DNA from: a virus
Taxonomy: Duplodnaviria > Heunggongvirae > Uroviricota > Caudoviricetes
Strand: one strand, 5' to 3'
Virus record (IMG/VR): IMGVR_UViG_2711768046_000005
Length of the DNA stretch: 35,930 nt
Shown: positions 8,752 to 35,336 of the stretch, piece by piece
Position numbering within the stretch: the stretch's first letter is position 1
Layout: the number at the start of each line of letters is the position of its first letter
The notes under the pieces: generated by a model
Database searches by the model: none
What the model was told of the DNA's origin: nothing
The model's input: the letters and a program-made list of their open reading frames with translations, nothing else
Translations under genes and position numbers: made by a program

Positions 8752-10086
8752 ATGTTTAGCTTAATCATGGCCGGAGAACCGGACGTTTTTGACCGCTGGC
8801 CGTGTATGGACCCTGAGCTTAAAGAAGGCAAGGAAAGCTTCTCGATGTCCCGCATGCTGGAAGGCACCCCAAGCAATATTTACAGAAAATTAACACCAAT
8901 AAGACCCGATACCTTAAGAGTACTCGCCAAGCTACCGGTGTTGTTCATGACCGAAATTTATACAAAAGATGATGAATATGATACAAACAAGTACATCAGG
9001 ATCAGGCTTGGGGAAATAAGAAATTTACGTAAAGATGGTGGCGATATTTTATTTTCTTTCAAGATTAATCATGATTTTGGAGAAATAACGAATCCCCAAA
9101 CGACATTATATAAAGAAACCCTAGGACTAGGATCTTTCGGGTTAAGTCGTACACATTGGGCAGTAAAAAATAAGGATTTGAATATTGTTCTGGAATTACT
9201 TGGTTTAAACAAAAAAAATAGCCATCTGAAAGGTACAATCAAATTAAAAAAACAAACATACCCAGTAGTCGAGAATATTATAGATTATCTTAATTTCATT
9301 AAGAAAAACTTTCGTGATGGTCTCATTACCTTCTATCGTGGACACTCTAAAAGCTCATATGAGCTTGTCCCCTCTCTTTACAGAAAAAATCAAAACGGGA
9401 CGTACAGGCATCTTGCTTCAGAATCTGATTTAGTACGTGAAATACTCAGCGCAAGACCAAATGAATTTAAGGAGGATAAATTTACGATTGATAAACTTGT
9501 CCGCATGCAGCATTATGGCTTGCCTACAAGACTCTTAGACATTACATCTAACCCACTGATAGCATTATATTTTGCTTGCTGTTCGAACCCCGATGAAAAC
9601 GGACAGGTGATTGCGTTTTCAACAAACAGAAAGAAAATTAAATATTTCGACTCAGACACAGTGAGCTGTATAGCAAACTTATCACTTTTATCTTACGAAG
9701 AGTTGGAAAAATTGTCTTCCATTGATGCCAGAAAAGGTAGTATGGAGTTACCTGAACTCACTGATAAACTTGCAGACCTTATACAGAATGAAAAATCATA
9801 TTTCAGAAACAGAATAATCCCTGATGACTTAAAGAAAGTTGTTTTCCTTAAGGCAAAAATAAATAATGAACGCATACAATCTCAGGCAGGAGCTTTTCTT
9901 CTGTTCGGACTTGATCCCATTTTACCGGAAACAGATGCTGAGTTTCCTCTTAACAGAGTGGAGATAGCGAACAAAAATAAAATTCTGGAAGAGCTGGCAC
10001 AGCTTAATATATCCGAAAGCACTGTATATCCCAGCATGGAGAAAACGGCAGCAGAAATTACAAAAAAGTTTTTATCGGTATCATAA
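8752..10086 (+). CDS. FRG-domain protein with an uncharacterised N-terminal domain (444 aa), cargo at the P2 Z/fun position
   Basis: SD AGGAG (8741-8745) lies 6 nt before the ATG. Motifs FYRGH...LVPSLYR (aa 194-211), MQHYGLPTRLLDITSNPLIALYFAC (aa 252-276) and NNERIQSQAGAFLLFG (aa 371-386) fit my recollection of the FRG family (PF08867). The gene is AT-rich and on the strand opposite the flanking late genes. Confidence 0.65.
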   Translation: MFSLIMAGEPDVFDRWPCMDPELKEGKESFSMSRMLEGTPSNIYRKLTPIRPDTLRVLAKLPVLFMTEIYTKDDEYDTNKYIRIRLGEIRNLRKDGGDILFSFKINHDFGEITNPQTTLYKETLGLGSFGLSRTHWAVKNKDLNIVLELLGLNKKNSHLKGTIKLKKQTYPVVENIIDYLNFIKKNFRDGLITFYRGHSKSSYELVPSLYRKNQNGTYRHLASESDLVREILSARPNEFKEDKFTIDKLVRMQHYGLPTRLLDITSNPLIALYFACCSNPDENGQVIAFSTNRKKIKYFDSDTVSCIANLSLLSYEELEKLSSIDARKGSMELPELTDKLADLIQNEKSYFRNRIIPDDLKKVVFLKAKINNERIQSQAGAFLLFGLDPILPETDAEFPLNRVEIANKNKILEELAQLNISESTVYPSMEKTAAEITKKFLSVS

Positions 10087-15529: not shown

Positions 15530-16273
15530 ATGGATAAATATCAAATCTGGGAAAATCAAAAAGACACCATCGCCCACCAAGAGTATTTAAAAATCTCCGA
15601 CACCAATTTACTTGGACATATGCATATTGCCAATTACGAAGTTGCCCAACATGAATTAAGCAAATTCAACTCCCCTGACATTGTTTCCCGTCATTCATTT
15701 AACAGAGACAAATTTAAAAAAGAACATTTAAACATATCAAGACACCTTTTCAATTATATATCTTCAGCATTATCATTTAGAGATTCAACGCGCAACCTAC
15801 TTAAAACAAAAGCATTAAATATTGCCGACATTAAAATCAAATCAGAGGCATTCATCAATCATGAATTCCGAAATAATCCAGTAATAAAATTAATGGAGGA
15901 CTTAAGAAACATCCTGACGCATCAAAACATGATCGCCCCATCAATATCATCATTCATGCACCTCCAAAGAAATATAAACATGCACGGCTTTTCATTTAAG
16001 ATTGAAAGAATCTTAAACAATGACAGAACCACCAAACAAACAAAAGAATATTTAATCTCACTAAAGCAAAAAAACTTATTCATTTTACCGATAATAGAAG
16101 AATACCAATACACGACTCTTAAGTATCAACACTGGCTTTTAGCAAGTATCTACACTGTTCATCAAGATACTTACCAAGAATACTGGAATGCGAGAAAAAA
16201 CATCATGAACGAATGGGGAGGAGACACTCAGCTAATACCTAAAGAGAGTGAGCTCACTTATTTAACCAGATAA
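15530..16273 (+). CDS. Hypothetical 247-aa protein with two RNxxxH (HEPN-like) motifs, cargo at the P2 orf30 position
   Basis: SD AAGGA (15517-15521) lies 8 nt before the ATG. The gene is very AT-rich and divergent from V. Motifs are LRNILTH (aa 125-131, nt 15902-15922) and QRNINMH (aa 146-152). I recognise no other family. Confidence 0.6.
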   Translation: MDKYQIWENQKDTIAHQEYLKISDTNLLGHMHIANYEVAQHELSKFNSPDIVSRHSFNRDKFKKEHLNISRHLFNYISSALSFRDSTRNLLKTKALNIADIKIKSEAFINHEFRNNPVIKLMEDLRNILTHQNMIAPSISSFMHLQRNINMHGFSFKIERILNNDRTTKQTKEYLISLKQKNLFILPIIEEYQYTTLKYQHWLLASIYTVHQDTYQEYWNARKNIMNEWGGDTQLIPKESELTYLTR

Positions 16274-22847: not shown

Positions 22848-24620
22848 ATGACCATCACCACAGACACCACTCTTTTACACGACCCGCGTCGTCAGGCGGC
22901 GCTGCTGTACTGGCAGGGGTTTTCCGTGCCGCAGATTGCCGCCATGTTGCAGATGAAACGCCCGACGGTGCAGAGCTGGAAACAGCGCGACGGCTGGGAC
23001 AGCGTTGCCCCCATCAGCCGTGTCGAAATGAGTCTGGAAGCGCGACTGACCCAGCTCATCATCAAACCGCAGAAAACCGGTGGTGACTTCAAGGAAATTG
23101 ACCTGCTCGGACGCCAGATTGAACGACTGGCACGGGTAAACCGCTACAGTCAGACCGGCAACGAGGCAGACCTTAATCCGAACGTCGCTAACCGCAACAA
23201 AGGCGGGCGTCGCAAACCGAAAAAGAATTTTTTCAGTGACGAGGCCATCGAAAAGCTGGAGCAGATTTTCTTTGAGCAGTCTTTCGACTATCAGTTGCAC
23301 TGGTATCGCGCCGGGCTTGAGCACCGCATCCGCGATATCCTGAAATCCCGCCAGATTGGCGCGACGTTTTATTTTTCCCGCGAGGCGCTGCTGCGCGCCC
23401 TGAAAACCGGCCATAACCAGATTTTTCTGTCGGCCAGTAAAACGCAGGCGTATGTGTTCCGCGAATACATCATTGCCTTTGCCCGGCTGGTTGACGTTGA
23501 CCTGACCGGTGACCCGATTGTCCTGGGCAATAACAGCGCAAAACTGATTTTTCTCGGCACCAACTCCAACACCGCACAGAGCCATAACGGCGACCTGTAC
23601 GTCGATGAGATTTTCTGGATCCCGAATTTTCAGGTACTGCGTAAGGTGGCATCAGGTATGGCCTCACAGAGTCACCTGCGCTCGACCTATTTCTCCACCC
23701 CGTCCACGCTGGCGCACGACGCCTACCCGTTCTGGTCGGGTGAACTGTTCAACCGGGGACGCGCCAGCGCCGCCGAACGCGTGGAAATCGACATCAGTCA
23801 TAACGCCCTTGCCGGAGGTCTTCTCTGTGCGGACGGCCAGTGGCGGCAGATTGTCACCATTGAGGACGCCCTGAAAGGTGGCTGCACGCTGTTCGACATT
23901 GAGCAGCTCAAACGTGAAAACAGCGCCGACGATTTTAAAAACCTGTTCATGTGTGAATTTGTTGACGATAAGGCGTCGGTGTTCCCGTTCGAGGAGCTGC
24001 AACGCTGCATGGTCGACACGCTGGAAGAATGGGAAGACTATGCGCCGTTTGCCGCCAATCCGTTCGGCTCCCGCCCGGTATGGATTGGTTACGACCCGTC
24101 ACACCGTGGCGACAGCGCCGGATGCGTGGTGCTGGCACCGCCGGTGGTGGCCGGTGGCAAATTCAGAATACTTGAGCGTCACCAGTGGAAAGGCATGGAC
24201 TTTGCCACCCAGGCTGAATCCATCCGCAAACTCACCGAAAAATACAACGTCGAATACATCGGTATTGATGCCACCGGCCTCGGTGTCGGCGTGTTCCAGC
24301 TCGTGCGCTCGTTCTATCCCGCCGCGCGCGACATCCGCTACACGCCGGAAATGAAAACCGCAATGGTGCTCAAGGCAAAAGACGTCATCCGCCGTGGCTG
24401 TCTGGAATATGACGTCAGCGCCACCGACATCACCAGCTCGTTTATGGCTATCCGCAAGACCATGACCAGCAGCGGACGCAGCGCCACCTATGAGGCCAGC
24501 CGCAGCGAGGAAGCCAGCCACGCCGACCTCGCCTGGGCGACCATGCACGCCCTGTTAAATGAGCCACTCACCGCCGGTATCAGCACCCCGCTGACATCCA
24601 CCATTCTGGAGTTTTACTGA
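22848..24620 (+). CDS. P: Terminase large (ATPase) subunit P (590 aa)
   Basis: The ATG at 22848 (MTITTDTTLLHDPRRQAALLYWQGFSVPQIA...) gives the P2 gpP length. A GAGG SD lies upstream. The TTG-extended ORF was rejected. Confidence 0.9.
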   Translation: MTITTDTTLLHDPRRQAALLYWQGFSVPQIAAMLQMKRPTVQSWKQRDGWDSVAPISRVEMSLEARLTQLIIKPQKTGGDFKEIDLLGRQIERLARVNRYSQTGNEADLNPNVANRNKGGRRKPKKNFFSDEAIEKLEQIFFEQSFDYQLHWYRAGLEHRIRDILKSRQIGATFYFSREALLRALKTGHNQIFLSASKTQAYVFREYIIAFARLVDVDLTGDPIVLGNNSAKLIFLGTNSNTAQSHNGDLYVDEIFWIPNFQVLRKVASGMASQSHLRSTYFSTPSTLAHDAYPFWSGELFNRGRASAAERVEIDISHNALAGGLLCADGQWRQIVTIEDALKGGCTLFDIEQLKRENSADDFKNLFMCEFVDDKASVFPFEELQRCMVDTLEEWEDYAPFAANPFGSRPVWIGYDPSHRGDSAGCVVLAPPVVAGGKFRILERHQWKGMDFATQAESIRKLTEKYNVEYIGIDATGLGVGVFQLVRSFYPAARDIRYTPEMKTAMVLKAKDVIRRGCLEYDVSATDITSSFMAIRKTMTSSGRSATYEASRSEEASHADLAWATMHALLNEPLTAGISTPLTSTILEFY

Positions 24621-25654
24621 TGAGCAAGAAAAAAGGGAAAACACCGCAACCTGCGGCAAAAAAAATGACCGCCAGCGCCCCGAAAATGGAGGCATTCACC
24701 TTTGGTGAGCCGGTGCCGGTACTCGACCGCCGTGACATTCTGGATTACGTCGAGTGCATCAGTAACGGCAGATGGTATGAGCCGCCGGTCAGCTTTACCG
24801 GTCTGGCGAAAAGCCTGCGTGCTGCCGTGCATCACAGCTCGCCGATTTACGTCAAACGCAATATTCTGGCCTCGACATTTATCCCGCATCCGTGGCTTTC
24901 CCAGCAGGATTTCAGCCGCTTTGTGCTGGATTTTCTGGTGTTCGGTAATGCGTTTCTGGAAAAGCGTTACAGCACCACCGGTAAGGTCATCAGACTGGAA
25001 ACCTCACCGGCAAAATATACCCGCCGTGGCGTGGAGGAGGATGTTTACTGGTGGGTGCCGTCCTTCAACGAGCCGACAGCCTTCACGCCCGGCTCCGTGT
25101 TTCACCTGCTGGAGCCGGATATTAATCAGGAGCTGTACGGCCTGCCGGAATATCTCAGCGCCCTTAACTCTGCCTGGCTGAATGAGTCGGCCACGCTGTT
25201 CCGCCGCAAGTATTACGAAAATGGCGCACATGCCGGATACATCATGTACGTCACCGATGCCGTGCAGGATCGCAACGATATCGAAATGCTTCGCGAAAAC
25301 ATGGTTAAGTCGAAAGGCCGCAATAACTTTAAAAATCTGTTTCTCTATGCCCCGCAGGGGAAAGCCGACGGCATTAAAATTATCCCCCTCAGTGAAGTGG
25401 CGACGAAGGACGATTTTTTTAATATCAAAAAAGCCAGCGCCGCAGACCTGCTGGACGCGCACCGCATCCCCTTTCAGTTGATGGGCGGCAAGCCGGAGAA
25501 CGTCGGGTCGCTGGGTGATATTGAGAAAGTGGCAAAGGTCTTTGTCCGCAATGAGCTTATCCCGCTACAGGACAGGATCCGCGAGATAAACGGCTGGCTC
25601 GGTCAGGAGGTCATCCGCTTTAAAAACTACTCACTGGACACTGACAACGGCTGA
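24620..25654 (+). CDS. Q: Portal protein Q (344 aa)
   Basis: P2 gpQ length. TGATG overlaps the P stop. Confidence 0.9.
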   Translation: MSKKKGKTPQPAAKKMTASAPKMEAFTFGEPVPVLDRRDILDYVECISNGRWYEPPVSFTGLAKSLRAAVHHSSPIYVKRNILASTFIPHPWLSQQDFSRFVLDFLVFGNAFLEKRYSTTGKVIRLETSPAKYTRRGVEEDVYWWVPSFNEPTAFTPGSVFHLLEPDINQELYGLPEYLSALNSAWLNESATLFRRKYYENGAHAGYIMYVTDAVQDRNDIEMLRENMVKSKGRNNFKNLFLYAPQGKADGIKIIPLSEVATKDDFFNIKKASAADLLDAHRIPFQLMGGKPENVGSLGDIEKVAKVFVRNELIPLQDRIREINGWLGQEVIRFKNYSLDTDNG

Positions 25655-25969: not shown

Positions 25970-27037
25970 TCATTTCTTAGCTTTCACAACCGGATGCGCG
26001 CGATCATGTCCACCGCCACGATGCTTAGAAAATATAACCTTTTCATTAGTAAAAGGTTTTTGGCCATAGACACTATCATAGTGGAAAAAGACGTTCGGAA
26101 GATGAGGCACACGGATGAATCCATACTTCACTCTAGTATCACCGATGACCCCAAAAACCCTTGTACTTACTGGGTAGCATAGTTCACCACAACGCATCAC
26201 TAATTCATCTGCTGTTGGGCGTTCAGAAGGTTCCAATTTTAAACAATCTTCTATAAGTTTAATTATTTCATTTGCCAATGGCGCATACTGTCTATTTGAA
26301 AATATAAAGTCAGGGTAAGGAACATGCGTGCCAGAAAGTATTTTTGGTATAGCCATATAACCAATACCAAAAGGGTATTTTCCAGTAAGAATCCTGAACA
26401 TCATCGCACCCAATGCCCAAATATCTGTAGGTTTCGAAACCTTACCTTGACTCTGTATGATTTCCGGTGCCATATATGGCAAAGCCCCGATAGCCGTTTG
26501 CGAAGAACTAATTGAATCTTGACCATTTCTTGCAGCCTCATCAATTTCATCTCCGGCCATCTTTGAAATGCCGAAATCCGTAATTTTTATCTCTGTAGCA
26601 TTGATACCACCGCCTACCATTATATTTGAAGGTTTGAGGTCCCGGTGTATGACGTCAACATGATGCGAAGCAGACAGAGCTTTAGCTAAATTATGAAATA
26701 TTTTAGCAGTTAAATATGGATCAACACTTGAATAAGTGTCTAAAATAGCCTTATCCAAGTCAACTCCATCAATAAATTCCTCCGTTAAAAACTCTCTACC
26801 CTCATCATCAATGAAGTAATCTAAGGTTTTAGCCACATTAGGATGATTAACCCTTGATGCTAATATTGCACTTCTATGAAACCTTTTTTCAGCAGATTTA
26901 TTTTTGGGAGTTTTGAGAGCCACATGCCTCGAGAGAATATTATCCATTGCCAAATAAACTTTTTGCATACCGCCTTCACCAATCTCCCTCAATATTGTAT
27001 ATCTGCTAACTTGAATTCCTGGAGTCAGATTTATCAT
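25970..27037 (-). CDS. Hanks-type Ser/Thr protein kinase with C-terminal cold-shock-domain-like module (355 aa)
   Basis: Kinase motifs are IGEGGMQKVY, VALK (K42), HRDLKPSN (D132), DFG (D154), LPYMAPE, DIWALG and ERP. C-terminal aa 291-352 read FGVIGDTRVKYGFIRVPHLPNVFFHYDSV...EKVIFSKH. This resembles CSD RNP1 (K-G-F-G-F-I) and RNP2 (V-F-V-H-F). SD GGAGGTG is present, and the ATGA overlaps the upstream gene. Confidence 0.85.
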   Translation of the reverse strand: MINLTPGIQVSRYTILREIGEGGMQKVYLAMDNILSRHVALKTPKNKSAEKRFHRSAILASRVNHPNVAKTLDYFIDDEGREFLTEEFIDGVDLDKAILDTYSSVDPYLTAKIFHNLAKALSASHHVDVIHRDLKPSNIMVGGGINATEIKITDFGISKMAGDEIDEAARNGQDSISSSQTAIGALPYMAPEIIQSQGKVSKPTDIWALGAMMFRILTGKYPFGIGYMAIPKILSGTHVPYPDFIFSNRQYAPLANEIIKLIEDCLKLEPSERPTADELVMRCGELCYPVSTRVFGVIGDTRVKYGFIRVPHLPNVFFHYDSVYGQKPFTNEKVIFSKHRGGGHDRAHPVVKAKK

Positions 27038-28098
27038 AACACCACCTCCGGATGGGAAAGGTCAAATGTAATGAAGACCCGCTCTTTTCTTGGCCGAGAA
27101 GTCTCTCCCAGAATAATAACACATGAATCAGGCAAAATATTATATTGCTTTGCAGCTATATTATTCACATACACCTCACCACTTAAACTCGATATATAAA
27201 ACTCTGAACCAGAATATTTCACCTCAATAGTCCCGACCCCTGAATTATTAAAAGCCGCAGATTTATTTGTTGAAGAAATGATGACGGGTGGAGTGTTATC
27301 AGAGATTAACAATGCTCTATGAGAGTTGTAGAGAACGAATTTTTTTAGAGTCTGACACACATCAGCCATATCAGGTCTCTCACAAGGATTCGTATCTAAA
27401 CATTGGAAAAGCAATTCTTTTACCTGAGTTGGTAACTGTATATTAGAATTATCAAAAGGATTAGACAATAATTTTTTGGGTAAAACTCTCATTTCCGGTG
27501 GTAGTGGGGTCTTAGCCAAAAACATGGCCGTTACAGCAAAAGCATATGTATCTATGGATTTTGTAAACGCTACTTGATGTAAAAATAATTCAGGTGCAGC
27601 ATATGTTGGGGTTCCTTTAAAACCTATTGTATTAGCTTCATCAACATTTCTAGATAGTCCGAAGTCATAAATCTTCACTACTCCCTCAGAATCAATTTTC
27701 ATGTTCCCAGGCTTGATATCCCTATGAATAATATCATGAGAATGTATCTCAGAAATACCCGAAGATATTTGCCACAAAATTTTAATCAAATCTTCAGAAT
27801 TTAATATGCGATCCTCTACTTCCAATAATGAAGGTCCGTCAACATACTCTTCGACTATAGCAATTCCTTTACCTTGATAATTAATAACATCATAAAGCTC
27901 TACTACATGTTTTGATCTTAATTTCATCAATGCTGATAACTCATCCATCATTCGAGGAGAATCATCAGGATTACTTATGGACTTTATAGCGACAAATCTT
28001 TCGAGGTGAGTATCCAAGCATTTGATCACGCAACCAAATCCTCCCGAAGCCTCTTCTTCAGTCCTCTTATATCTTGCAGGGAGAGTAAAATTAGTCAT
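27034..28098 (-). CDS. Hanks-type Ser/Thr protein kinase with FHA-like C-terminal beta domain (354 aa)
   Basis: Kinase motifs are SGGFGCV, VAIK (K39), HRDIKPGN (D126), DFG (D145), GTPTYAAPE and CERP. The C-terminal roughly 90 aa (...IEVKYSGSEFYISSLSGEVYVNNIAAKQYNILPDSCVIILGE...) have an FHA-like strand pattern. SD AAGGAG is present, and there is an 8-nt overlap (ATGACTAA) with the phosphatase gene. Confidence 0.85.
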   Translation of the reverse strand: MTNFTLPARYKRTEEEASGGFGCVIKCLDTHLERFVAIKSISNPDDSPRMMDELSALMKLRSKHVVELYDVINYQGKGIAIVEEYVDGPSLLEVEDRILNSEDLIKILWQISSGISEIHSHDIIHRDIKPGNMKIDSEGVVKIYDFGLSRNVDEANTIGFKGTPTYAAPELFLHQVAFTKSIDTYAFAVTAMFLAKTPLPPEMRVLPKKLLSNPFDNSNIQLPTQVKELLFQCLDTNPCERPDMADVCQTLKKFVLYNSHRALLISDNTPPVIISSTNKSAAFNNSGVGTIEVKYSGSEFYISSLSGEVYVNNIAAKQYNILPDSCVIILGETSRPRKERVFITFDLSHPEVVL

Positions 28099-29257
28099 CT
28101 TTATCTCCTTTAGTGGAGTTTTTCTCAGAGAATGAAATATCTAACTGTGAAATATTATCTAACTTATCATTATTGTTAGCTTCGATAACATTCCTTCCCT
28201 CATCACTCTTTATATTACTATTTTTTTTCTTTGTACGTGATTTCCTTTTCGATACATTTTTTTTGTTAGAAATTTCATTACTGCATTCTAACTCAGTAAC
28301 TTTTCTATCAATAACATTTTCAACCGTAGCTGAGTTAGGTATATCTAACGGCGCAGGTTGCACGCTAATTACTTTCATCTCACCAAAAGGATCCCATAAA
28401 TTAATTACATCCCCAGATGATACATCCAAAGCACTTAGGATGTTCGAAATCTCAACTACCGCAATCGACGCATTATCAAATCCACCAAACCAACTAGCTA
28501 GATCTATAACTCTTTTAGCGAACACTCCAGTATTATTGGAGTGAGCATATAATTTTCTCAAATTATTACTGTCAATGGTATGAGCACCATCTGAAGTTAA
28601 TGCAACCACCCCAGGTACGAGCCGAATATCGTGAAAATGTATCTCAAGAACACCATCAAGACCTATAAACTGTACTAACTCGCCACCTAACCTAGAATCA
28701 ATAACACCTGAGTCACTACCAAGATGCTCATTATATTTCTTTGCCAATACAGCTAATGTATCATCCTCACTAATTTGTTTTATGTGTTCAGCATTAATGG
28801 AATATATGCGACTATCCCCGACATTTATTGCTGTAATGTTATCGGAGTCATCTACAGCTAAGGCAGATAACGTAGCCCCACCGTTCCCATTATATACTTT
28901 CAAAACCGATTCATTTGCTTTTAAAACGGCGATTTCAAGACATTGTCTAATTGGCAAGCCTGAGTGTTTAATTATCTCGGTAAAAAAAGATGATACGGTC
29001 AATGAAGCAGCATTCGCTCCCCCTTCCATCCCCCCCATACCATCTGCTAAAGCGATGACAATCATGTCCTTATTCTTACTAAAAGGACGAAATTTTAATA
29101 CAGCTACCCGGTCTTGGTTCTCTTTCCTAACTAAACCTATGTCTGTAGCAATAGCTGCAGGTAGCATAGATACTCTTCGTACAGATGAAGAGATATTTTT
29201 TCTATGCAGCCAAGCGTGTATCTGTTCATGAAGGATCTCGTAAGAGTCTCGACTCAC
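28091..29257 (-). CDS. PP2C (PPM)-family Ser/Thr phosphatase with Lys/Asn-rich C-terminal tail (388 aa)
   Basis: A GTG start is preceded by a strong SD GAGGAGG. PPM motifs are RKENQD (D49), ALADGMGG (D72), GGATLSAL, VGDSRIY, LTSDG (D223) and DNASIAVV (D261). The tail at aa 325-388 is low complexity. Confidence 0.85.
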   Translation of the reverse strand: MSRDSYEILHEQIHAWLHRKNISSSVRRVSMLPAAIATDIGLVRKENQDRVAVLKFRPFSKNKDMIVIALADGMGGMEGGANAASLTVSSFFTEIIKHSGLPIRQCLEIAVLKANESVLKVYNGNGGATLSALAVDDSDNITAINVGDSRIYSINAEHIKQISEDDTLAVLAKKYNEHLGSDSGVIDSRLGGELVQFIGLDGVLEIHFHDIRLVPGVVALTSDGAHTIDSNNLRKLYAHSNNTGVFAKRVIDLASWFGGFDNASIAVVEISNILSALDVSSGDVINLWDPFGEMKVISVQPAPLDIPNSATVENVIDRKVTELECSNEISNKKNVSKRKSRTKKKNSNIKSDEGRNVIEANNNDKLDNISQLDISFSEKNSTKGDKDD

Positions 29258-29478: not shown

Positions 29479-31764
29479 CTATATACATCGTTGATTTATT
29501 GGAAGCCCCGGCCACTCATCAACAACCGGATATGTAAATTTTTTCTCGCCATATGCCACCCTCGCACCTCGTGCTAGTACATCCAGCTCCCACCGTTCCG
29601 GCGTGATGCCATGCTGTGCGAGGTCAAACCGGATACGCGATATCTGGTCGCGCTGCGATTTAGTCAGCCTTGCCGATGGCGCAATTTCATTAGGTTTTAA
29701 CGGGCCTCCGTTTCTCTGCTGACGATTTGGTGTTCTCAGGCCGTGTTTTAATGCGCCCCTGAGCGCCCTCACTACATCCGGGTCATTCCATTCGATAACA
29801 CCTTCATCAACCAGATTAAGTACTGCTGCGGCGTGCTCAGAAGGTGTGGGAGCCGGTAACGAAGTATCACCACCAGTGAGCTTTCCACAGTTATTGACAG
29901 GACTCCGAGGCGCGACGATGCCGCTTTTTAAAGTCAAAGGCTCAACGACCGGAACTTTCGGCACAATGCGCCAGTCCGTCGTTCTGGTGATATGAATATG
30001 ACGCGCGCCGAGATGCGGCGCGTAAATGCCGACCACTCTCTCGACTTCTTCCTCGTACTCGTTAACTTCATCCGACGGGCTACGGGCGACTCTGACAGTC
30101 TGACAATCGCGCGGGACATTTGCCCCACCCTGCGCGCTGATATACAACGCAAAATCACCACTGTCTGCGGCGGCGCGTGCAGCCTCGACGCGCTCGTCAA
30201 ACTCATCAGCAATGCTGACGCCGCGCGGCAATTTGCGTAGTTCACGGTAAGCCCCCATTGTCGGCAGGCCAACCGTTTTAAATTGCGGGATGCGCCACGT
30301 TGACGCCCATGCGGTAACAGCCGCTGCAGTGTCTTTCAGCGGCCTGCCGGTGTCGTTATCGAGCTGACCATCCAGTGCATAGCCGTCGATGTTTTTTGAA
30401 ATGTATTTCGCGATATATCCCGCAGCACCGCCCCGGTTAAGGTGTTTTGCCTGAAAACGGTTTCGCGCGGCTCCTCTTTCGTCGCCATCCTCTTTGAGCG
30501 CATAGCGACGCATGATTTCGATAATCTGGTTACGCTGGCGTGAATTACAAAAAAGCATCATATGCCAGTGCGGCGTTCCGTCGTGGTGTGGCTCGACGAC
30601 ACGCAAACCGTAGACCTGTAAATCATTATCCTTGAATGCCGTGCGCATCAGGCTCCAGATACGGCAGAGATAACGCTGCGCATCCTTTGGATTAAATGCC
30701 TCATCGTTCCAGCCGTGATTAAGCTGCACGGTTTTACTTTCGCCTTTTCCTACCTGACGTGTCGGGTGATACTTTGACGGCGCGGTCAGCGTGATAAACA
30801 TCCCCACATCACCCTCTGCAGCGGCGTAACGCTCAATACCGGCAATGGTGTTCATCAGCTCCATCCGGCGAATTTCAGGATTAGAAATACTGCCCATCAC
30901 CTTACTGATAAGGTCGATGCGCTCGCCGGTTTCCCTGTTTTCAAGGTCACACGATTTAAGAAATTCCAGATTTGCCTGGCGGCGCGCACGCACATCACGA
31001 ATGGCGTGTTTACTGGCATAAGGAGAACGGTCTTTATTGACCTCCCCGACAGCTATCAGTAACGCTTCATGCCAGCGCATACGCTGGCCTTTAAGCTGAT
31101 GAGTCCACCACTCATCGTTAAACAGACGGGCAATGGCAGAATATGCCTGCCTCGTGGTCATCTGTCCTTTACGGTATTTTTTCCAGTAGAGCGGGGAAAT
31201 ATTGAAAGCACGTGCAGCGCCAGCAACATGACCATACAGGTGAGCCTGCGCCTCATCCGTAAACAGCGATTCTTTTTCACCATGCGCATCAACCCATGCA
31301 TCGCAGAGTTCCTCATACATCATGAAAAGCTGCGATGAGATACGGGCGGCAAACTTTTTCAGCTCCTTGTCATTCATTCCCGGCAGGCGCGCATAGTGGT
31401 CACGCTCTGCCAGAAACAGCAACGACGCGTCGGTGTTCATTTCATGGCGCTGATTCACACGCTCAATGCGCGGCCATAAACGACGCTGAAAAGTAGATGT
31501 GAGGAAATAAAACCCGTGCACCGGGCTTTTATTGCGCCGGATGTAGTCATAGCGTGAAGTAAACAGCGAGCGCAAAAAGTAAGGCAGGCGGTTAATCGTG
31601 GATAAAACACCTTGCACCTGACGCATCTCGTCACGTGTAAGAGGTCTTTCGCGCCCGACAGCCTCGCGTGGCGCGTTCCATGCATAAGCACCGGTAAATG
31701 CCTTACCGGTGCCTGCGGTAAATGCTGACGGAGGGACAAAACACCCGGAGGCTTTAACGGCCAT
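29479..31764 (-). CDS. A: Replication initiation (rolling-circle nickase) protein A (761 aa)
   Basis: MAVKASGCFVPPSAF...GAYAWNAPREAVGRERPLTRDEMRQ... is recognised as P2 gpA. The start was set at Met15 of the 775-aa ORF to give the remembered 761 aa. The longer start at 31806 is not excluded. Confidence 0.85.
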   Translation of the reverse strand: MAVKASGCFVPPSAFTAGTGKAFTGAYAWNAPREAVGRERPLTRDEMRQVQGVLSTINRLPYFLRSLFTSRYDYIRRNKSPVHGFYFLTSTFQRRLWPRIERVNQRHEMNTDASLLFLAERDHYARLPGMNDKELKKFAARISSQLFMMYEELCDAWVDAHGEKESLFTDEAQAHLYGHVAGAARAFNISPLYWKKYRKGQMTTRQAYSAIARLFNDEWWTHQLKGQRMRWHEALLIAVGEVNKDRSPYASKHAIRDVRARRQANLEFLKSCDLENRETGERIDLISKVMGSISNPEIRRMELMNTIAGIERYAAAEGDVGMFITLTAPSKYHPTRQVGKGESKTVQLNHGWNDEAFNPKDAQRYLCRIWSLMRTAFKDNDLQVYGLRVVEPHHDGTPHWHMMLFCNSRQRNQIIEIMRRYALKEDGDERGAARNRFQAKHLNRGGAAGYIAKYISKNIDGYALDGQLDNDTGRPLKDTAAAVTAWASTWRIPQFKTVGLPTMGAYRELRKLPRGVSIADEFDERVEAARAAADSGDFALYISAQGGANVPRDCQTVRVARSPSDEVNEYEEEVERVVGIYAPHLGARHIHITRTTDWRIVPKVPVVEPLTLKSGIVAPRSPVNNCGKLTGGDTSLPAPTPSEHAAAVLNLVDEGVIEWNDPDVVRALRGALKHGLRTPNRQQRNGGPLKPNEIAPSARLTKSQRDQISRIRFDLAQHGITPERWELDVLARGARVAYGEKKFTYPVVDEWPGLPINQRCI

Positions 31765-32029
31765 ATGAGCCAAAAGCCTCTGAACAACGCTTGCTGAGTT
31801 GCTCAACCTGCGCGTTTAAATCAGCAAAAGATTTTGCGCTTCCGGTCAGAATATCGTGATGCATCAGGCCGGAAACGAGCTGGCCTAATTTCGGGTAATA
31901 ACCAACCACCGCCAGCCATTCCTGACCGGCGTTTTTACCGCTTTCCGCTCTCTTTTTCTCGTGGAGAATAAACTGAAAGCTGTCACTGGTAACGACATAA
32001 CGTTCGCCAATTTCAATACGAATACTCAT
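31754..32029 (-). CDS. P2 orf83-position early protein (91 aa)
   Basis: Its position immediately upstream of A and its coupling to the neighbouring genes support the call. Function unknown. Confidence 0.7.
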   Translation of the reverse strand: MSIRIEIGERYVVTSDSFQFILHEKKRAESGKNAGQEWLAVVGYYPKLGQLVSGLMHHDILTGSAKSFADLNAQVEQLSKRCSEAFGSYGR

Positions 32030-34322: not shown

Positions 34323-35336
34323 ATGGCAATCAAAAAACTCGATGATGGTCGATATGAAGTGGACATCCGCCCTACTGGACGTAATGGAAAACGCATCCGT
34401 AGGAAGTTTGATAAGAAAAGCGAAGCTGTCGCTTTCGAGAAATACACGTTGTACAACCACCACAATAAAGAATGGCTATCAAAACCAACAGACAAGCGAC
34501 GTCTGTCGGAGCTGACACAGATCTGGTGGGATTTAAAGGGTAAACACGAAGAGCATGGGAAATCTAATCTTGGAAAAATTGAAATCTTCACAAAAATAAC
34601 GAATGACCCATGCGCATTTCAAATTACGAAATCGCTTATCAGCCAGTACTGCGCCACCCGAAGAAGTCAGGGTATTAAACCTTCGAGTATCAATCGTGAT
34701 TTAACATGTATTAGCGGCATGTTTACAGCCCTGATTGAAGCGGAGTTATTCTTTGGTGAGCACCCTATCAGAGGGACAAAAAGGCTTAAGGAGGAAAAAC
34801 CAGACACAGGCTATCTCACGCAGGAAGAAATTGCCTTACTGCTTGCTGCTCTTGACGGCGACAACAAAAAGATTGCGATTCTTTGCCTGAGTACTGGAGC
34901 ACGTTGGGGAGAAGCAGCTCGTTTGAAAGCAGAAAATATCATCCATAACCGCGTCACGTTTGTTAAAACGAAAACAAACAAACCACGCACCGTCCCGATC
35001 TCAGAGGCTGTTGCCAAAATGATCGCGGATAACAAACGAGGTTTTTTATTCCCTGATGCTGATTACCCTCGCTTCAGACGAACAATGAAAGCAATAAAAC
35101 CGGATTTGCCAATGGGGCAAGCCACACATGCACTAAGGCACAGCTTTGCCACTCATTTCATGATTAATGGAGGAAGTATTATCACGCTACAACGGATACT
35201 AGGTCACACGCGGATTGAGCAAACTATGGTTTACGCTCATTTTGCGCCAGAGTACCTTCAGGACGCCATTTCTCTTAATCCGCTAAGAGGTGGTACTGAG
35301 GCCGAGAGTGTCCACACAGTGTCCACAGTAGAGTAA
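34323..35336 (+). CDS. int: Tyrosine integrase (337 aa)
   Basis: P2 Int length and sequence. Catalytic signature: ARWGE (R), HALRHSF (H-x-x-R), GHTRIEQTMVYAH (H...Y). Confidence 0.9.
   Translation: MAIKKLDDGRYEVDIRPTGRNGKRIRRKFDKKSEAVAFEKYTLYNHHNKEWLSKPTDKRRLSELTQIWWDLKGKHEEHGKSNLGKIEIFTKITNDPCAFQITKSLISQYCATRRSQGIKPSSINRDLTCISGMFTALIEAELFFGEHPIRGTKRLKEEKPDTGYLTQEEIALLLAALDGDNKKIAILCLSTGARWGEAARLKAENIIHNRVTFVKTKTNKPRTVPISEAVAKMIADNKRGFLFPDADYPRFRRTMKAIKPDLPMGQATHALRHSFATHFMINGGSIITLQRILGHTRIEQTMVYAHFAPEYLQDAISLNPLRGGTEAESVHTVSTVE
35309..35327. promoter_or_regulatory. Int arm-type binding repeats (2 x TGTCCACA, 11-bp spacing), int-side arm
   Basis: Perfect direct octamers lie at 35309-35316 and 35320-35327 inside the int 3' end. 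They mirror the pair at 1574-1592. Confidence 0.55.

Follow-up and report, generated by a model that had tools for sequence, protein, structure and literature searches.

We analyzed a window of 35,930 nucleotides (IMG/VR virus record IMGVR_UViG_2711768046_000005) containing a P2-like E. coli prophage, which carries a three-gene operon encoding a PP2C-type phosphatase and two Ser/Thr protein kinases, a module known as KKP. The first kinase (kinase 1) bears a C-terminal domain of amino acid residues (aa) 260-354. This domain is best explained as a diverged FHA-fold coupling domain of a PfkB-type KKP kinase, in which the residues used by canonical FHA domains to bind phosphothreonine (pThr) have been lost; we give this interpretation a probability of about 70%. 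The domain annotation and the system itself are already published, and what is new is a small point, the degeneration of the phosphate pocket, which is kept in this state throughout the family. The fold, the loss of residues, their conservation, the gene order, and the domain architecture come from this analysis; what is said of toxicity, of defence, and of the need for the domain is taken from the literature, and the coupling role and the place of the binding face are inferred. Kinase 1 is organized as follows:

27034-28098, minus strand: open reading frame (ORF) of kinase 1, 354 aa
27349-28098, minus strand: kinase domain of kinase 1, aa 1-250, PfkB-type, matching PF00069 and carrying GGFG, VAIK, HRD, DFG, and APE motifs
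27037-27321, minus strand: divergent FHA-fold domain of kinase 1, aa 260-354, which reaches the stop codon, 7 residues beyond the end given in a first-pass annotation made from the sequence alone

The segment 27058-27321 on the minus strand, with the translation HRALLISDNTPPVIISSTNKSAAFNNSGVGTIEVKYSGSEFYISSLSGEVYVNNIAAKQYNILPDSCVIILGETSRPRKERVFITFDL, corresponds to aa 260-347 of kinase 1. It had been described in the first-pass annotation as β-rich, with correct coordinates and sequence, and AlphaFold2 modeling followed by DSSP assignment bore this out: strands were predicted at aa 262-266, 269-274, 280-285, 289-295, 300-307, 309-311, 326-330, and 341-347. When aa 250-354 were modeled in isolation by AlphaFold2 with a 77-sequence alignment, a β sandwich was obtained with a pLDDT (predicted local distance difference test) score of 93.6 and a predicted template modeling score (pTM) of 0.84. 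The model contained 8 longer strands and short bridges, about 10 β elements in all (11 in a canonical FHA domain). The model of full-length kinase 1 was also confident (pLDDT 91.1, pTM 0.88), with the linker at a pLDDT of ~95, and in its tail the pLDDT was 83, compared with 66 when the domain was modeled alone. A Foldseek search against PDB indicated FHA domains weakly (best E 9e-3), and no meaningful match was found in the viral library BFVD.

Searches with sequence profiles were negative. The FHA profile PF00498 was absent from full-length kinase 1 at E<=1 (Pfam), from all 37 diverse C-termini of the family (kinase 1 and 36 relatives; Pfam hmmscan, E<=10), and from the Pfam lists precomputed for the 120 best-scoring homologues. 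A profile of the family C-terminal domain retrieved no FHA chain at E<=10 among all PDB sequences; its match to ribosomal protein uS19 (E 0.34) was taken as chance. For hhalign comparisons, a reference alignment of six FHA domains (GarA, Rad53 FHA2, Chk2, FhaA, Ki67, and RNF8) was used, the sequences of which were checked against PDB (GarA was identical, and the other five scored ~1.9-2.3 bits per residue). The family profile aligned with these references at P=6.5e-4, and the profile built from 185 family sequences at P=1.3e-4 with a probability of 54%. In these alignments VYVNN was registered on T-x-V-N-G and LPDSCVIILG on L-x-x-G-D-x-I-x-L-G, so that both the x-V-N-G turn between β7 and β8 and the following L-x-x-G-D-x-I-x-L-G motif have counterparts in kinase 1. 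The likeness to the second half of FHA domains, already suspected in the first-pass annotation, is above chance but weak at the sequence level.

The lack of a profile signal in the Pfam and PDB searches, a Foldseek E-value of only ~1e-2, and about 10 DSSP strands instead of 11 would also fit an unrelated β sandwich, or a domain of the MH2/IRF type, which resembles FHA domains superficially. We consider this highly improbable, since hhalign placed both the β7/β8 Asn turn and the β9-β10 motif in register, and the SMAD/FHA fold class takes in MH2 and IRF domains as well. The predicted structures make a sound case that the C-terminal domain of kinase 1 is an FHA-fold β sandwich, family-specific and strongly diverged, which agrees with the earlier suggestion of a divergent FHA domain. 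The FHA label is therefore valid for this domain at the level of the fold and not at the level of the PF00498 profile.

The residues invariant in the six reference FHA domains are a Gly-Arg pair, a Ser, a His, a loop Asn, and a turn Asn. Five of these six residues were absent from kinase 1 and were not conserved over 185 homologues. The sole counterpart was N312, which corresponds to the turn Asn and is conserved in 100% of the family. At the site of the Gly-Arg pair (β3/β4 loop) no such pair was found; the sequence of kinase 1 is ...VIISSTNKS..., and hhalign opened an 8-residue gap there. The nearest basic column, position 279, is not invariant (R 64%, K 15%, P 12%). Ser-x-x-His was not found in the β4/β5 loop either, where kinase 1 has NNSGVGT: the canonical Ser was aligned to S286 (a column with P 36%, G 22%, and S 11%) or to position 287, and the canonical His to T290 (a mixed S/E/K column) or to G289 (G 94%). 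The Asn of the β6/β7 loop (S-x-N-G) was likewise not found, the sequence being LSGE with a 2-residue hhalign gap at N-G. Because the alignment of the N-terminal half was uncertain, the family columns were also inspected independently of the FHA alignment, and within aa 267-292 of the 185-sequence family alignment there was no column conserving Arg beside Gly, and none conserving Ser or His.

In canonical FHA domains the Arg of the Gly-Arg pair binds the phosphate of pThr. Judged from the alignments, the canonical pThr-binding apparatus is absent from kinase 1 and from the entire family. The first-pass annotation was thus right in not seeing the G-R and S-x-x-H motifs. It had further proposed that, provided the domain is an FHA, the operon contains a built-in writer, reader, and eraser logic. 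The writer and the eraser are present as the KKP kinases and the PP2C phosphatase; since the canonical residues are absent and unconserved family-wide, a canonical pThr reader is unsupported. Binding by this domain is probably not canonical pThr recognition, and any phospho-dependence would need a different site. PMC11341870 and two follow-up papers on KKP contain neither a phosphopeptide-binding test of the domain nor a remark on the missing motifs.

The KKP system was described as a tripartite module in which the PP2C phosphatase PfpC is joined by two kinases, PfkB, which ends in an FHA domain, and PfkA, which ends in a CSD carrying GFI/A (Guo et al. 2024, Nat Commun 15:7244, PMC11341870). 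It was recognized by adjacent genes for PP2C, kinase, and kinase on the same strand, 900-1300 bp each, and was located in P2, P4, Mu, and Pf prophages, with more than 1,200 clusters (PMC11341870). The module of the window consists, in addition to kinase 1, of the following features:

28091-29257, minus strand: gene for a PP2C-type Ser/Thr phosphatase of 388 aa, a PfpC-like antitoxin, at the head of the operon
26171-27037, minus strand: kinase domain of the second kinase (kinase 2), aa 1-289, PfkA-type, with GEGGM, VALK, HRD, DFG, and APE motifs
25973-26170, minus strand: C-terminal cold-shock-like (CSD/OB) domain of kinase 2, with the motifs 'YGFIRV' (GFI) and 'VFFHY'
27043-27049, minus strand: Shine-Dalgarno GGAGGTG of kinase 2, sequence CCGGAGGTGGTGTTATGA

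The three genes are on the minus strand and measure 1167 bp (PP2C), 1065 bp (kinase 1), and 1068 bp (kinase 2, 355 aa), in agreement with the published gene order, strand, and sizes. The end of the PP2C gene overlaps the start of kinase 1 by 8 bp, and kinases 1 and 2 overlap by 4 bp. The domain content also agreed with KKP: the phosphatase matched PF13672 (PP2C_2) in Pfam with E 4.7e-6 and 26.7 bits, above the 24-bit cutoff, and PF00069 was matched by aa 18-249 of kinase 1 (E 1.7e-42) and aa 13-280 of kinase 2 (E 4.7e-45), both kinases having HRD, DFG, and APE, and kinase 2 also GGM, like PfkA. The NCBIfam model Stp1_PP2C matched the phosphatase with E 1.5e-29, under the cutoff of the model. 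The catalytic motifs of kinase 1 were readable in the translation and invariant across the family. The C-terminus of kinase 2 matched the CSD profile PF00313 below threshold (E 0.0036); the CSD was matched by 17 of 24 homologous kinase 2 C-termini, and 'YGFIRV' and 'VFFHY' aligned with the RNP1/RNP2 motifs of CspA, so the CSD with GFI is present on the second kinase. The FHA domain expected on the first kinase was recovered at the fold level and not as PF00498, and the prophage location corresponds to the mobile elements in which KKP was described. The module of the window is KKP, agreeing with the published description at every sequence-level point save PF00498.

Compared with the PfkB kinases of published modules, KKP-MP from a Pseudomonas Pf6 prophage and KKP-EC039 from E. 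coli 15EC039, kinase 1 shares the operon order, with PP2C followed by kinases of roughly 350 and roughly 355 aa. The location in a P2 prophage is shared as well, with Phage_GPA and Phage_portal appearing in the neighbourhood figure of the paper, and Pseudomonas members of the family are 44-45% identical to kinase 1 over the full length. The module of the window is probably a different allele. The PF00498 label given in PMC11341870 was not reproduced by Pfam hmmscan in the kinase 1 family.

According to the published experiments, PfkA and PfkB are toxic only jointly, autophosphorylation requires both, the two kinases pull each other down reciprocally, and the phosphatase acts as the antitoxin (PMC11341870). 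Toxicity was lost upon truncation of the FHA domain or mutation of GFI (PMC11341870). Four heterologous modules, one of them from E. coli 15EC039, conferred on E. coli a defence against both T4 and T-odd phages; Gp59 of T4 was identified as the trigger, acting via inhibition of the KKP phosphatase. In the mechanism that we propose, the FHA-like domain would be held rigidly on its own kinase domain, as in the full-length model, and would provide a surface for cooperation of the PfkB-type kinase with the CSD-bearing PfkA-type kinase. The PP2C phosphatase would undo the phosphorylation for as long as no phage protein has inactivated it. The candidate binding face would be formed by the conserved loops at one end of the sandwich, including R340, G289, G307, G331, and the basic positions 279 and 335. 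A link between the two kinases through this domain had been suggested in the first-pass annotation, and the domain is indeed required for the joint action of the kinases in PMC11341870; the step of pThr reading that was part of the suggestion is unsupported.

The conservation pattern of the domain in the 185-sequence alignment fell into two groups of residues. The first group comprises H260, Y295, G297, N312, N313 (98%), D346, S348, P350, and E351. Their placement was obtained by mapping the strands of the model onto the standard FHA topology and not from coordinates; by this strand order they would lie at the end of the sandwich that contains both termini and adjoins the kinase domain. The second group comprises G289, G307 (97%), E/D308 (83%), G331 (98%), and R340, which is invariant, together with positions 279 (R/K 79%) and 335 (R/K 74%), which are mostly basic. 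By the same strand order, these residues would be located in loops at the other end of the sandwich, the one that serves canonical FHA domains for peptide binding. A ligand surface there is plausible and would differ from the canonical one. P323 (92%) and V327 (100%) were also conserved.

The conserved tail requires caution. The Shine-Dalgarno sequence of kinase 2 coincides with codons P350-E351-V352 (CCG GAG GTG) of the kinase 1 tail, and the ATG of kinase 2 overlaps the TGA of kinase 1 (ATGA, 27034-27037). This arrangement was found in nearly all of 68 related loci, where the Glu codon is GAG in 62 and GAA in 6. It suggests that the tail codons are under a dual constraint of coding and ribosome binding, with translational coupling; the tail consequently owes its invariance in part to a constraint at the nucleotide level, which does not necessarily reflect protein function. 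Since P-E-V is accounted for by the ribosome-binding site, we do not claim the tail D-x-S-x-P-E-V as a docking motif.

The first group of residues bears on the possibility that the domain has a purely structural or autoinhibitory role in cis, being packed on its own kinase lobe without any ligand. The full-length model, with its pTM of 0.88, confident linker, and better-defined tail, is in line with such a role, as are the invariant H260, Y295, N312, N313, D346, and S348, which by strand order are near the termini and the kinase domain. Nevertheless, truncation of the domain abolishes toxicity and does not activate the kinases (PMC11341870), R340 together with the loop glycines, nearly invariant and located at the other end, speaks for a second functional face, and the conservation of the tail is partly due to the embedded ribosome-binding site. 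We regard an exclusively cis-acting domain as improbable.

The second group of residues would be central if the domain were a real pThr reader that recognizes the partner kinase, its own kinase, or the phosphatase via a non-canonical site formed by R340, 279, and 335, so that the module would form a writer-reader-eraser loop. The FHA fold itself speaks for this, together with the invariance of R340 and the prevalence of basic residues at 279 and 335 in loops that by strand order are at the canonical binding end. Phosphosites were published on both kinases, and their autophosphorylation requires both partners; Guo et al. also refer to the domain as a phosphopeptide-interaction motif (PMC11341870). 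On the other hand, none of the canonical Arg, Ser, His, and Asn is present or conserved, and the β6/β7 loop, a phosphopeptide contact site of canonical FHA domains, has the acidic E/D308 in 83% of the family. There is also no FHA profile match, and no binding is reported in PMC11341870 and the two follow-up papers. A pThr reader of this kind is doubtful, though likelier than the other alternatives.

Many FHA domains, such as those of Rad53 and Chk2, recruit substrates. The domain of kinase 1 might accordingly dock host targets or a phage protein rather than connect the two kinases, and the position of the conserved residues at the loop end of the sandwich is compatible with this. The published targets of KKP include TopA, InfB, FtsZ, and MvaU, and their phosphorylation in the host requires both kinases and both C-terminal domains (PMC11341870). 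The published targets are, however, many and unrelated, the domain is kept across phyla in which the target proteins differ, and the only known trigger binds the phosphatase and not a kinase. Recruitment of substrates or of the trigger as the main function of the domain seems unlikely to us.

Several points weigh against our interpretation of the domain as a diverged coupling domain devoid of canonical pThr binding. The probabilities given by hhalign, 27-54%, are low, and the alignment is uncertain in its N-terminal half. The coupling role is transferred from truncation and pull-down data for the orthologue from Pseudomonas Pf6. R340, K279, and R335 are assigned to the peptide-binding end from the strand order only, and the conserved basic loop beside the canonical site could still bind phosphate. 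Finally, the label FHA (PF00498) used in PMC11341870 implies binding of phosphopeptides.

A more specific version of the proposed explanation is that the domain is a pseudo-FHA, in which pThr recognition was lost family-wide (in more than 200 clusters from several phyla), and a new surface made of R340 and the loop glycines couples the kinases independently of phosphorylation or reads another mark. We consider the chances of this version to be evenly balanced. If it is true, the published assumption of a phosphopeptide motif is wrong, and KKP comprises a writer and an eraser with no classical reader. If canonical pThr binding is impossible, the mechanistic question becomes narrower, with R340, K279, R335, G289, and G307 as candidate residues. 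The matter is of broader interest as KKP is a widespread prophage cargo that serves both as a toxin-antitoxin system and in antiphage defence, and two elements are known to be required in it, one being the FHA-type domain.

With canonical FHA domains (Rad53 FHA1/FHA2, Chk2, GarA and FhaA of M. tuberculosis, Ki67, and RNF8) the domain of kinase 1 shares the β7/β8 Asn turn and the β9-β10 motif 'L..G/S.. I.LG', whereas Gly-Arg, Ser-x-x-His, and the β6/β7 Asn are missing from it. Rad53 and Chk2 combine an FHA domain and a Ser/Thr kinase on one polypeptide, like kinase 1, but their FHA domains are N-terminal and that of kinase 1 is C-terminal to the kinase. The kinase 1 domain additionally bears the invariant tail R340-x-F-I-T-F-D-x-S-x-P-E. 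FHA folds without pThr-binding residues are known from the N-terminal domains of YscD/PscD of type III and EssC of type VII secretion systems. Unlike kinase 1, these are secretion-system proteins with no attached kinase; their structural scores with the kinase 1 domain were below those of canonical FHA domains, and no sequence relationship was detected.

Among antiphage Ser/Thr kinases of PADLOC, mad6 (E 2e-52) and PD-T4-6 (E 2e-32) were matched by the KKP kinase domains. The matches were confined to the kinase domain (aa 6-282) and excluded the FHA-like domain, and the NCBIfam MAD6 score of 112 was far under the cutoff of 460. Unlike KKP, PD-T4-6 and Mad6 of MADS occur as lone kinases or within operons of another kind. 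Scans of the three proteins with Pfam, NCBIfam, and PADLOC yielded generic kinase and PP2C matches only, with no KKP-specific model among them. The PP2C gene had no PADLOC match. PADLOC (2023) has no model for KKP, and no NCBIfam (2026) model reached its cutoff on the three proteins; for want of a module-specific model, KKP modules are missed by standard defence-system finders.

The distribution of the domain was surveyed in one genome per species by pattern and tblastn searches. It was encoded in 73 loci from Proteobacteria, Cyanobacteria, Planctomycetota, Verrucomicrobiota, Acidobacteriota, and candidate phyla. Of these 73 loci, 61 had all three genes, for PP2C, the kinase with the domain, and the second kinase, and most of the remaining 12 were interrupted by contig ends. 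A phmmer search of 1.84 billion representative proteins yielded 231 clusters (50% identity) with the domain. Among the best 150 matches, the domain was located at the extreme C-terminus of proteins or fragments of ~350 aa, with two exceptions. These exceptions, P0122 and P0206 (2096 and 1313 aa, with Calx-beta and CBM_X2 repeats; E ~1e-18 and ~1e-9), were rejected because their scores sum 12-17 weak repeat stretches against the 105-aa domain and are probably an artefact.

Of 50,697 deposited phage genomes, only that of Klebsiella phage Kp4865-2 encoded a relative of the domain, with 33% identity. This relative (OK490418.1, 8313-8603) is unannotated, and its rarity contrasts with the commonness of KKP in integrated prophages reported in PMC11341870. 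Three loci of the survey had an unusual organization. In Ectopseudomonas khazarica (locus L014, 8613-10306) a second, more distant pair of PP2C (E 1e-9) and kinase (E 1e-25) genes was located ~2 kb downstream of the KKP triplet and was clipped by the end of the locus. In another locus (L033, 3261-5312) the kinase 1 ORF is 684 aa long, with an N-terminal extension in which no PP2C match was found at E<=1e-3. In Chamaesiphon (L047, 4239-5309) the kinase 1 homologue is solitary, and neither PP2C nor a second kinase was found within 5 kb.

In the prophage of the window, the KKP operon occupies the variable region between the portal gene and the replication gene. A host gene for peptidase U32 lies at the left end of the window, and genes for capsid scaffold, terminase, and portal proteins are found at 21.8-25.7 kb. 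The flanks and the integrase are as follows:

29479-31806, minus strand: P2 gpA-type replication endonuclease (ORF; 'replication endonuclease' of PGAP in an identical locus), one flank of the variable region
24620-25654, plus strand: phage portal protein, P2 Q-type (ORF; 'phage portal protein' of PGAP), the other flank of the variable region
34323-35336: integrase

The 3.3-kb island between portal and gpA has a guanine-cytosine (GC) content of 36-39% against ~55% in the flanks and the phage. The island recurs at 99.9-100% identity in 14 of the 5,426 complete E. coli genomes, and four further genomes hold a variant that is 71% identical. In an identical E. coli locus annotated by PGAP, kinase 1 and PP2C have the same coordinates as here, and the names are generic only: 'serine/threonine-protein kinase' for the kinases and 'PP2C family protein-serine/threonine phosphatase' for the phosphatase. 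A promoter scan of the operon region gave no signal above chance. The phosphatase has a Lys/Asn/Ser-rich low-complexity tail of ~100 residues outside the PP2C domain (aa ~290-388, window positions 28094-28400, minus strand; ...NKKNVSKRKSRTKKKNSNIKSDEGRN...). A follow-up paper on KKP described the C-terminus of PfpC as disordered and protease-sensitive.

Two further genes stand out in the window. The first (8752-10086, plus strand, 444 aa) is a second low-GC cargo gene (36-44% GC) in the tail-gene region, and its product strongly matched PDC-S15, a candidate defence family of PADLOC (E 6.7e-99), and has an FRG domain (PF08867, E 2.8e-22). The second (15530-16273, plus strand) is a 247-aa ORF of ~46% GC with no match in Pfam or PADLOC; the tail and baseplate genes around it are on the other strand, and it is possibly a further moron or cargo gene.

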